Positions 22,021 through 25,303 of a stretch of DNA of 64,000 nt are shown piece by piece. The DNA comes from Candidatus Saccharimonadota bacterium (GTDB taxonomy: Bacteria; Patescibacteriota; Saccharimonadia; UBA4664): contig JACAFG010000003.1 of assembly GCA_019352195.1 (NCBI GenBank), positions 956-64,955 of the forward strand, written 5' to 3'. The position numbers and the translations under genes were made by a program. Under the pieces are notes generated by a model. The model did not search any database. It saw nothing but the letters and a program-made list of their open reading frames with translations, and was not told where the DNA came from. Numbering within the stretch: the stretch's first letter is position 1; every line of letters begins with the position of its first letter.

Positions 22021-22131
22021 TCCTGTATTATATATCGCTTATGGTTTGGGATCGAGGCCTAAAATCGAGATGCCCCGGATTGGCGAACCAATCCGGGGCA
22101 GCTGGACGTGCGAACTGAGCTTGTATTACTC

Positions 22132-25014
22132 TCAGGCGATGACTTCATCGCCTGAGGTTGACGCCAGACTGCGGTCAAGAGCTTCGAGACCGTCCCTCAG
22201 CGTCTCGAGATAGAACGATCGGCCGGGCGCCGTCTTGCGCACGGCAACCGTGTAGGCATTGGCTAGGCGGGCCACCGCACCTTTGCCGTAGAGCTTTTTG
22301 GCCGCACGATACCGCTCGAGCAGGGCTGCGGCGTCGATTGGAGCCACCGACTCAGCAGTTGCTGGTGCTTCAACCGCGTGCAGTTTCGTACGTTTGCCCT
22401 CACTGATGGGCGTAACGGCGGCTAGGCTTGGTGTGATGCTATCCACCGGGGCCGGGTCCAACCGTTTGATACCATCCGGCAAAACCATGATGGACACTGA
22501 TGCCCCTGCCCGATTGCGCTTCCACTCGATGAGGCCAGCTTCGTTGAGCTCGTCCAGAATGAGTTTCAGCCACGCTTTGGGCAGACCGACGTCGGCGGAT
22601 AGGCTGTCCACCCGAGACACCAGCATTTGGTCGTAGATGGTTTGGAGCACGACCAGTTCGCAGGCCCCGGCAATATCGGCAAAAATGCCGCCGATGATAT
22701 CGGGAGTCAGTAGCTGGCCGGACTTGCCAAGTTCGGCGAGATGAGCCGATGCAGCGCGGGACAAGCGAGCCGGGGCCAGCTCGTAGAAGACGTCTCCCGC
22801 CGGTAGCAGTTCGATCGAGATCTGCCGGTTGCCCACCAGAGTCCGGCTGATGTAGCCTATCGCCTGCATCAGGCGAAGGACATCATTGGTAACCGACGAG
22901 TTGCTGCCAAGCTCGATGATCCGGGTCAGGGCTGAGCCATTGAGCTCTTTGCCGCCACGACCGCCGCAGGCCTTGAGGACGGCAATGATGCGGCGCATGC
23001 GCTTGGCATCATCGGTGCCAAGCAGGGCTCCCCCAGGCGTAGCGGACGAAGGCTCGACCGCTGCTTTGGGTTCGGTCTTGGTTTCGACCGGCCGCGCTGG
23101 ACCACACATGGCGGTCAGCAGGGCGCGAGACGGCAGGTTGGCAACAACACCCACCGCGGTGGTGCTGACGAGCCGCAGGGGCGTTGGCCCGGTGCCGTGC
23201 ACTGCTGGCACGGCGACGGCTGCGTCTGCGGTTGGTGAGGAGGCGAGGACCGCGACCTCGGCCGGAGCCGATGCCACTGGCTCCGGAACTGGCCGAGAGG
23301 CATCATCGGTGAGCACCGCTTCGATGGTCTTAAACGTGCTGGCACCATCTTCTTCTTCACCGACCGGTACTGCCGCCACGATCTCGTCGACTGGTTCGCC
23401 GGCGATCAGCTCCTCACTATCGGGCGGGAGTACGGCGCTGAGTTCGATCTCAGCATCGGGCTCCGGCCGAGTTTGCGAATCGTCCGGCGCTTCGGCGGGG
23501 ACTGTGGTCGGGGCCGGCAAAACCGGCGGCGCCACTTCGGGCGCAGCGGCAACTGGTTGCGGACGCTCGACGGCCTTGGTAGCCGGCTGGAAATCGTAGG
23601 CCACGATCGTTGGCACGTTACCAACTGGCTCGATCCGTAGCAGATTGCCCTGCGAAGCAACAAACTTCTGCCACAGATCCTTTTGAGTACCTCCATGACG
23701 TGAATTGCGGCTGCGACGCGTTGATGGCACAAAATGCAGTTGGGTGTAGATGAGCGCAAGGTTGGCGCTATCAAGCACCAAGCCTGCTTTGCCCTCTCGT
23801 ATGGCGGTATCGAACAACCGCTTGAGAGCAGATTGGCGCTGATGATCTATCACTGCCGGCTCCTCTGGTGTGGATTGGCGATGAACGGATGGACGCAGCC
23901 GATCGGCGGCGGGTTGTGCAAGGTGAGGCACGGCCTCTACTGTTGCCGTGGCCGCGTCTTGGGTGGTAGCGGTTTTGACTGCAACGGGCCGTGGTCGGCA
24001 TTCAACCAGCGTCGGGCCGTAATGGAAGCCGGTGATGATCAGGTTGCCGACGCTGTCGGTGCTGCCGATTAAGCGCTCCGCCTCAACTTCGCCGGCGATA
24101 AACCGGTCGAGCTGGGCAGTTGCCGAGTCGGTAGCACTTCGGACGAAGTCGAGCTTACTTGCCAAGCCGGTTTTCGTGGCCAGACCGATTACATAGCCGC
24201 CGGTGACGTCGGCGAAGGCATCGCCGAGAATTTCGGCGAGCAATTGCTGACGCTCGGCCAACGTCGTGGTTGAAACCGGGCCTCGGTAGAACGCTCGCGA
24301 ACTGGGCGGAGGCGTGAAGCTGGGAGCAAAGCTGTAGCTTGCTGGCGGTACGTTGCCCGCCTGAACTTCGCTCCTTGACCCATTGAGGCTGGTCTTGTCG
24401 GCGCCTGCCGGTAGGTCGACCATGACGTGGGCGCTGGGATCGACGCAATCAGTGACGTCGCCCGCAGCAGTCAGCGTGACCCGTCCTGCAGCGGCCTCGG
24501 CGGCTAGCCACTGCGTTAAATCAGTGACTGACGGCGCGAGGAATATTCCGCTGTAAAACCACAACTCGTCGGCCAGATCGGGGTCGGGCGTGAGATGGCT
24601 ATCACCACCAACATGCATATCGACCATCAGGTTGAACAGCTTGCGGCGGCGGTCGAGGTCTGACATGGCAAGCGCCTCACCGGACGGCCTACCGCTCTCG
24701 TTGGTCCGCCTGGCCGAATTGAATATCGGACTCAGCTTTAGTCTTCGCCGTTCGCGCTCGCTCAGACCGCCCCAAATGCCGAAGCGTTCGTCATTCCTAA
24801 GCGCCGCTGATAGGCACGCGGAGCGCACTTCACAGCCAATACAGATCTTTTTGGCGTCTCGGGTTGAACCGCCTTTTTCCGGGAAAAAAGCGTCAGGGTC
24901 GGTTTGAGCACATAAGGCGCGCTCGAGCCAGTTTGCGTCGTCGCCGATGAGGTCGGACTCAGTGTCCAAGTCGGGCAAAGAATCATCGACGCTGACATCA
25001 TTTGAAGTTGTCAT
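22132..25014 (-). CDS. WhiB-like (Wbl) [4Fe-4S] domain fused to an 860-aa low-complexity Ala/Pro-rich extension
   Basis: Residues about 25-95 read WLERALCAQTDPDAFFPEKGGSTRDAKKICIGCEVRSACLSAALRNDERFGIWGGLSERERRRL. This has the four conserved Cys and the G(I/V)WGG turn of WhiB. One continuous 960-aa ORF at about 62% GC. The opposite-strand ORFs are fragmented. Confidence 0.7.
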   Translation of the reverse strand: MTTSNDVSVDDSLPDLDTESDLIGDDANWLERALCAQTDPDAFFPEKGGSTRDAKKICIGCEVRSACLSAALRNDERFGIWGGLSERERRRLKLSPIFNSARRTNESGRPSGEALAMSDLDRRRKLFNLMVDMHVGGDSHLTPDPDLADELWFYSGIFLAPSVTDLTQWLAAEAAAGRVTLTAAGDVTDCVDPSAHVMVDLPAGADKTSLNGSRSEVQAGNVPPASYSFAPSFTPPPSSRAFYRGPVSTTTLAERQQLLAEILGDAFADVTGGYVIGLATKTGLASKLDFVRSATDSATAQLDRFIAGEVEAERLIGSTDSVGNLIITGFHYGPTLVECRPRPVAVKTATTQDAATATVEAVPHLAQPAADRLRPSVHRQSTPEEPAVIDHQRQSALKRLFDTAIREGKAGLVLDSANLALIYTQLHFVPSTRRSRNSRHGGTQKDLWQKFVASQGNLLRIEPVGNVPTIVAYDFQPATKAVERPQPVAAAPEVAPPVLPAPTTVPAEAPDDSQTRPEPDAEIELSAVLPPDSEELIAGEPVDEIVAAVPVGEEEDGASTFKTIEAVLTDDASRPVPEPVASAPAEVAVLASSPTADAAVAVPAVHGTGPTPLRLVSTTAVGVVANLPSRALLTAMCGPARPVETKTEPKAAVEPSSATPGGALLGTDDAKRMRRIIAVLKACGGRGGKELNGSALTRIIELGSNSSVTNDVLRLMQAIGYISRTLVGNRQISIELLPAGDVFYELAPARLSRAASAHLAELGKSGQLLTPDIIGGIFADIAGACELVVLQTIYDQMLVSRVDSLSADVGLPKAWLKLILDELNEAGLIEWKRNRAGASVSIMVLPDGIKRLDPAPVDSITPSLAAVTPISEGKRTKLHAVEAPATAESVAPIDAAALLERYRAAKKLYGKGAVARLANAYTVAVRKTAPGRSFYLETLRDGLEALDRSLASTSGDEVIA

Positions 25015-25303
25015 ATCGTTGTCCTCCTTGTCTAGGTACGTCCACCCACATGCGACTGCAACGTGGTTATACTAGTTTTACTCGCATCTATCGGTGCCGA
25101 CAAGGCAATATTGTTTAACTATCTAAAAAACCACCCGGTCGGTGGCTTTTTGCTTGGATTCTTAACTAGTTGCTTGGCTGTTCCTAACGTTGATCAGTTA
25201 GGAGTGCTAGGGCACACCAAAGCCCGCAAACGAGAGGTACTTATACGCACATCGAGGGCGGGCTGGAAGTGTTGGCAACGCTAGGCGCTGCGAGCAGTTA
25301 GGA

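Follow-up and report, generated by a model that had tools for sequence, protein, structure and literature searches.

The reading frame of 960 codons on the reverse strand of the window, the 64,000-nucleotide stretch of DNA analysed here, represents a real chromosomal gene that is monocistronic and belongs to a Saccharimonadia bacterium. The encoded protein has an N-terminal head that is, by its sequence motifs, a class II (WhiB/WhiB2-like) Wbl domain and an 860-residue tail that, as judged from homology searches, is lineage-specific and evolving very fast. Predicted structures suggest that this tail is probably a string of small winged-helix-type modules and disordered linkers. In light of this organization, we propose that a head docking on region 4 of a sigma factor is combined in cis with lineage-specific modules binding either DNA or partner proteins, an assignment to which we give about an even chance of being correct.

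Genomic context and integrity of the gene

The complete coding sequence (22132..25014, reverse strand), at exactly the coordinates given in a sequence-only reading of the locus, starts with ATG and runs over 2,883 nt to its stop codon with no interrupting stop, yielding a product of 960 residues with a predicted mass of 101 kDa. A Shine-Dalgarno sequence (AAGGAGGA, 25022..25029, reverse strand) can be read 7 nt upstream of the ATG. Further upstream, after rpsI, the hairpin ccaccgaccgggtgg followed by TTTTTT (25125..25145, reverse strand) matches the consensus of a terminator; this terminator-like element, which a terminator scan also picked up on the forward strand, would part the gene from the ribosomal-protein operon. 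The same scan detected a second hairpin 32 nt past the stop codon (22071..22100, reverse strand), whose 13-bp stem with nine G-C pairs and T-run resemble an intrinsic terminator, again as a consensus match. The gene is placed between rpsI and a gene encoding a TrkA-like protein. Its taxonomic context is that proposed earlier, a CPR-like background lacking ribosomal protein L30, since the S5 gene is directly followed by L15 with no L30 between them and the adjacent S9 gene shows 83–85% identity to Saccharimonadia MAGs.

Given the size of the protein, we considered whether a frameshift or a chimeric join might have attached a short whiB gene to downstream genes. Such an artefact of sequencing or assembly could be suspected, as an SD-like GGTGAGG is found upstream of the internal Met117 and the Arg-rich tails of two long Wbl proteins in databases (P0011 and P0007) look like wrong-frame read-through. 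The MAG contig JABBYD010000024.1 at NCBI and the Logan assembly of SRR11551193 contain the identical reading frame; both probably derive from the same reads but were obtained with two different assemblers. The pattern of GC1>GC2 and high GC3 extends along the whole frame, as in adjacent genes, with equal codon-position GC in head and tail; tandem DNA repeats were not found within 22132–25014, and the entire frame is bracketed by a single strong ribosome binding site and terminators. Moreover, relatives recovered from independent metagenomes and MAGs have genes for a Wbl head with a tail at this very position, flanked by rpsI and the TrkA-like gene, and the tail of one of them (P0002) is homologous to that of the window protein. 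Because relatives carry this organization in the same slot, we conclude that the fusion is no artefact, an explanation that we regard as barely conceivable, and that head and body reside in one gene, as had been supposed.

Sequence features of the Wbl head

The Wbl ([4Fe-4S]) domain comprises residues 25–95 (24730..24942, reverse strand). In a search with the Pfam family Whib (PF02467), residues 29–92 match profile positions 1–65 of 65 with E=8.7e-24 and 84.3 bits (cutoff 23.6). The nearest solved structure is Streptomyces WhiB (PDB 8dy9_H, E=6.5e-34 over residues 25–95), and in a ranking of PDB entries Streptomyces WhiB with E~1e-34 is followed by WhiB4, WhiB1, WhiB3 and WhiB7 with values of 1e-13 or weaker. 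Four cysteines (C35, C58, C61 and C67, spaced C-Xn-C-X2-C-X5-C) align with those of Streptomyces WhiB. W29 is part of an NWLERALC motif, a GIWGG turn is formed by residues 79–83 and a basic ERERRRLK stretch by residues 86–93. The textbook WhiB domain described in the sequence-only reading, including its four cysteines and the WLERALC, GIWGG and ERRRL regions, is thus borne out. The equivalents of the aromatic patch AP1–4 of WhiB1 (W3, F17, F18 and W60), which was defined in PMC13013590 and serves the binding of σA region 4, are W29, F43, F44 and W81, with one tryptophan six residues ahead of the first cysteine, the two phenylalanines in an FFP sequence after TDPD and the second tryptophan inside GIWGG. 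The G[V/I]WGG turn is a motif of the Wbl family and an ERF triplet a mark of WhiB2 (PMC6282962); in the head, ERF directly adjoins the turn in the sequence DERFGIWGG, which, together with the closest similarity being to WhiB, assigns the domain to class II. An AT-hook with an RGRP core and basic flanks is absent, the only similar sequence being SGRPS at residues 107–111, which is flanked by E and S.

In a trimmed alignment, the head shares 76% identity with WhiB from S. venezuelae, which is as close as or closer than the counterparts in its own genomic slot (56–70%).

Counterparts in relatives and origin of the head

The slot between rpsI and the TrkA-like gene is hypervariable. In several close relatives it is empty; in others it holds short Wbl genes or a gene encoding only a tail, the latter preceded by its own ribosome binding site in the locus L003. 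Proteins with head and tail are encoded in three relatives (P0002, 515 residues; L006, 371; L009, 345), and the 960-residue protein is the longest of these positional counterparts. The length of the tail ranges from 0 to 860 residues among slot occupants, with nearly no sequence conservation between tails. P0002, L006 and L009 share the plan of the window protein, consisting of an acidic N-terminus, a class II Wbl head, one or more modules and a Pro-rich linker, with the window protein containing about four more modules and a 186-residue acidic linker. A neighbour-joining tree of 126 heads groups the four proteins together, a clade recovered in 0 of 60 bootstrap replicates of a 40-taxon subsample, compared to 20 of 60 for the pair of window protein and P0002.

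Reviews and a 2026 structural survey describe Wbl proteins as small, devoid of a DNA-binding domain and exclusive to Actinobacteria and their phages (PMC6282962, PMC13013590). The location on a Saccharimonadia contig and the presence of Wbl genes in at least eight other Saccharimonadia loci contradict the reported distribution, not the homology. In the papers searched, we found no link between WhiB or Wbl proteins and genomes of Saccharibacteria or Patescibacteria, and the supplements of a Tn-seq paper on Southlakia do not mention them. An acquisition of the domain from an actinobacterial host had been suggested earlier, and an actinobacterial origin of the head is plausible in view of its 76% identity to S. 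venezuelae WhiB, the distribution described in the literature and the lifestyle of cultivated Saccharibacteria, which grow on Actinobacteria (PMC10633639). The idea of a one-off acquisition is, in contrast, at odds with the slot of related Saccharimonadia, whose Wbl genes fall into two or more sequence classes, and with a second long Wbl protein encoded in the same MAG. Since these features coincide with a codon-position GC of the head that matches neighbouring genes, the acquisition looks old rather than recent and followed by diversification inside the lineage. The locus probably also records an ancient transfer of genes that linked the lineages of host and epibiont.

The size of the protein is unusual within the family, as had been noted. 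Characterized Wbl proteins contain 81–139 residues with WblM, WblO and WblP as accepted exceptions (PMC6282962), in line with the previous statement that 80–130 residues are normal. This statement does not extend to databases, where many proteins with a Wbl domain span 220–671 residues, most of them extended at the N-terminus. With 960 residues the window protein lies outside the range given in the review, although this size range describes the family and does not define it, and it is the longest among the Wbl-domain proteins surveyed, its C-terminal extension of 860 residues being more than twice as long as the next (391 residues). Other fusions connect Wbl domains to the cell-division and segregation domains SepF (P0121) and ParB (P0084).

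Organization of the tail

The tail had been described as a low-complexity extension with a single globular region of about 300 residues at its C-terminus. The first part of this description holds for about 40% of its length, corresponding to approximately 340 residues in the linkers 96–116, 201–246, 336–385, 477–662 and 853–889. The remainder contains 30–41% hydrophobic residues and predicted helices and strands, as in folded modules, three of which lie in the N-terminal half and thus outside the proposed globular region. Module M1 (residues 117–200; 24415..24666, reverse strand) is acidic (pI 4.3) with three helices predicted by DSSP from a low-confidence AF2 model, and has no detectable homologue. 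Module M2 (residues 247–335; 24010..24276, reverse strand) is predicted to form three helices followed by two strands, a pattern also predicted for the basic module M3 (residues 386–476; 23587..23859, reverse strand; pI 10.3). The subsequent acidic linker (residues 477–662; 23029..23586, reverse strand) is rich in Pro, Ala and Glu, carries a net charge of –18 and shows no predicted secondary structure. It is followed by the basic module M4 with three predicted helices (residues 663–750; 22765..23028, reverse strand; pI 9.8) and by M5 (residues 766–852; 22459..22719, reverse strand), the best-predicted stretch of the tail and a candidate winged helix of the MarR type, again with three helices and two strands. 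A basic helical hairpin predicted with a pLDDT of 66–72 (residues 890–960; 22135..22347, reverse strand; pI 9.5) forms the C-terminus. In total, M1, M2 and M5 are acidic (pI 4.3–4.7), and M3, M4 and the hairpin are basic (pI 9.5–10.3).

M2 is the only part of the tail with a detectable homologue. In a phmmer search of 1.84 billion proteins it matched P0002 with E=2.4e-8, and in BLASTP the two proteins share 36% identity over 108 residues (E=5.8e-16), with diverging linkers. Searches with the tail provided no significant match to Pfam, NCBIfam or PDB sequences, no match in PHROGs, PADLOC, phage and plasmid collections or defence libraries, and only the tail itself in a word-index search. The best Pfam hit, TFIIE_alpha, was below significance. 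Self-BLASTP did not reveal internal repeats. M2 and M3 resemble each other weakly (hhalign probability of 55% over 44 columns when comparing the M2 profile to M3), and Smith-Waterman comparisons with shuffled sequences gave a maximal z of 3.9 within the protein, for the same pair, and of 5.5 for M2 against a module of L003. A relationship between modules is thus suggestive, not demonstrated. On visual inspection, the C-terminus of the window protein (…APGRSFYLETLRDGLEAL…) was reminiscent of a conserved C-terminal motif common to the tails of L003x, L005, L006 and L009. The best domain score obtained with a profile of the four tails was negative; the motif is not detectable in the window protein and the likeness was therefore rejected.

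The closest folds to the tail in a low-confidence model are DNA-binding regulators of the MarR family, and one or more of the modules seem to adopt a MarR-like winged-helix fold. The mean pLDDT is 33 in the full-length AF2 model, which is unusable for fold searches, and 48 in a second model; since confidence is low in both, generic helical predictions could have given rise to spurious fold matches. By these predictions, a row of winged-helix-type modules describes the tail better than a scaffold of unknown fold; the redox-sensing scaffold that had been envisaged is conjectural.

A proposed mechanism and its alternatives

As in other members of the family, the head would hold a [4Fe-4S] cluster on its four cysteines and its aromatic patch would dock, within the RNA polymerase holoenzyme, on the primary sigma factor at region 4, which may render the activity of the protein sensitive to O2, NO or the loss of the cluster. 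The tail, with its five putative helix-helix-helix(-hairpin) modules of about 85 residues, the terminal helical hairpin and flexible Pro/Ala/Glu-rich linkers, might then supply in cis what characterized Wbl proteins require in trans, as WhiB does with WhiA, or contain in the form of a short motif, like the AT-hook of WhiB7. The basic M3, M4 and C-terminus would contact DNA upstream of the –35 element and the acidic M1, M2 and M5 partner proteins. Several observations stand against this model. Three modules out of five are acidic, an uncommon property among DNA-binding domains, structures were predicted with low confidence, significant matches of the tail are lacking and the relatedness of modules is marginal. 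In addition, the region-4 tail in 120 RpoD sequences of related Saccharimonadaceae reads KLRKHKDSKKLHEYL. Because this sequence stands where M. tuberculosis has KLRHPSRSQVLRDYLD, the H516-P517 pair, on which the known Wbl interface is centred, is not preserved in register in these RpoD sequences, a comparison that rests on relatives and not on this genome: two candidates examined in a search with Saccharimonadaceae RpoD were not from GCA_017884045.1, the MAG described here. No whiA was found among the annotated reading frames of the window.

Alternatively, a head functioning as in Actinobacteria might be attached to a tail that serves as protein-protein scaffold instead of a DNA binder, tethering, for example, sigma factor or RNA polymerase, or proteins of cell division or other partners, via linker-spaced winged-helix-like modules. 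The acidic character of M1, M2, M5 and the central linker would suit such a role, winged helices often mediate protein contacts, with TFIIE_alpha being the best weak Pfam match, other Wbl fusions contain the cell-division or segregation domains SepF and ParB, and class II Wbl proteins control cell division (PMC6282962). We nevertheless consider this possibility rather unlikely, as M3, M4 and the hairpin are basic, the nearest folds bind DNA and no partner can be named.

The variation in tail length with almost no conservation, the large share of disordered linkers, the single tail homologue among 1.84 billion proteins and the empty slot in several close relatives could also reflect mostly non-functional, drifting sequence that has expanded in a hypervariable slot, leaving the head as the only part that matters. 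This appears improbable given that a frame of 2.6 kb is retained open in a reduced genome, that M2 is preserved in P0002 despite diverging linkers, that a gene for the tail by itself persists with its own ribosome binding site in L003 and that the modules combine regular predicted secondary structure with a substantial hydrophobic content.

In a final scenario, which we deem very unlikely, the protein would be a WhiB mimic, delivered by the epibiont to an actinobacterial host, whose head binds the σA region 4 of that host and whose tail redirects host transcription or division, in parallel to phage-encoded WhiB proteins and with the fast-evolving modular tail reflecting an arms race with hosts. 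The proximity of the head to S. venezuelae WhiB, the sigma factors of relatives without H516-P517 in register, the rapid evolution of tail and slot, and the growth of cultivated Saccharibacteria on Actinobacteria would agree with such a role. Conversely, the sequence showed neither a signal peptide nor a transmembrane stretch nor any known signal for secretion, the gene is located amid ribosomal-protein and housekeeping genes, a 101-kDa Fe-S protein is an unlikely cargo, phage, plasmid and defence libraries contain no match and the sigma factors inspected are not from this genome.

Comparison with known systems

Our preferred reading, a docking head with binding modules in cis, relates the protein to several known systems. 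It shares the four cysteines, ERF-GIWGG, the aromatic patch and ERERRRLK with the class II proteins Streptomyces WhiB and Mycobacterium WhiB2, a type represented in the WhiA-WhiB-σA-RNAP complex (PDB 8dy9). WhiB, however, has 87 residues, obtains its DNA specificity via the separate WhiA and resides in an actinobacterium, whereas the window protein continues for 860 residues beyond the basic tail of the Wbl domain and belongs to a CPR bacterium. The exceptional WblM, WblO and WblP demonstrate that a Wbl domain may occur in one chain with domains of the transcription machinery (PMC6282962); the WblP type combines a Wbl domain with Sigma-70 regions 2 and 4, neither of which was detected in the window tail, with no Pfam match of Sigma70 domains at E<=1 in the entire protein. 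Proteins of the WblM/WblO/WblP type are plasmid-borne, unlike the chromosomal and syntenic window gene, whose product is much longer. MarR-family regulators are homodimers of about 140 residues, whereas M5 would be a module within a 101-kDa chain, a candidate relative by the fold in a low-confidence model, with no significant sequence match. The proposed design principle is the same as in WhiB7/WblC (class V), where a Wbl head is followed by a C-terminal element contacting DNA upstream of –35 (PMC6282962). In WhiB7 this appendage is an AT-hook of about ten residues (KRPRGRPRK), in contrast to the class II head, SGRPS without basic flanks and predicted folded modules of the window protein.

Several Wbl genes are thus present in a CPR lineage that, as far as cultivated, lives on Actinobacteria, with class II heads repeatedly built into far larger proteins, of which this genome encodes two, and with at least one tail module that looks winged-helix-like in predictions. 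Should the head not dock, as might be the case for a CPR sigma factor without the His-Pro pair, its partner would be something new. If sigma region 4 is its docking site, proteins of this kind would constitute natural experiments in Wbl specificity supplied in cis and would offer a way into the control of transcription in CPR bacteria with reduced genomes.

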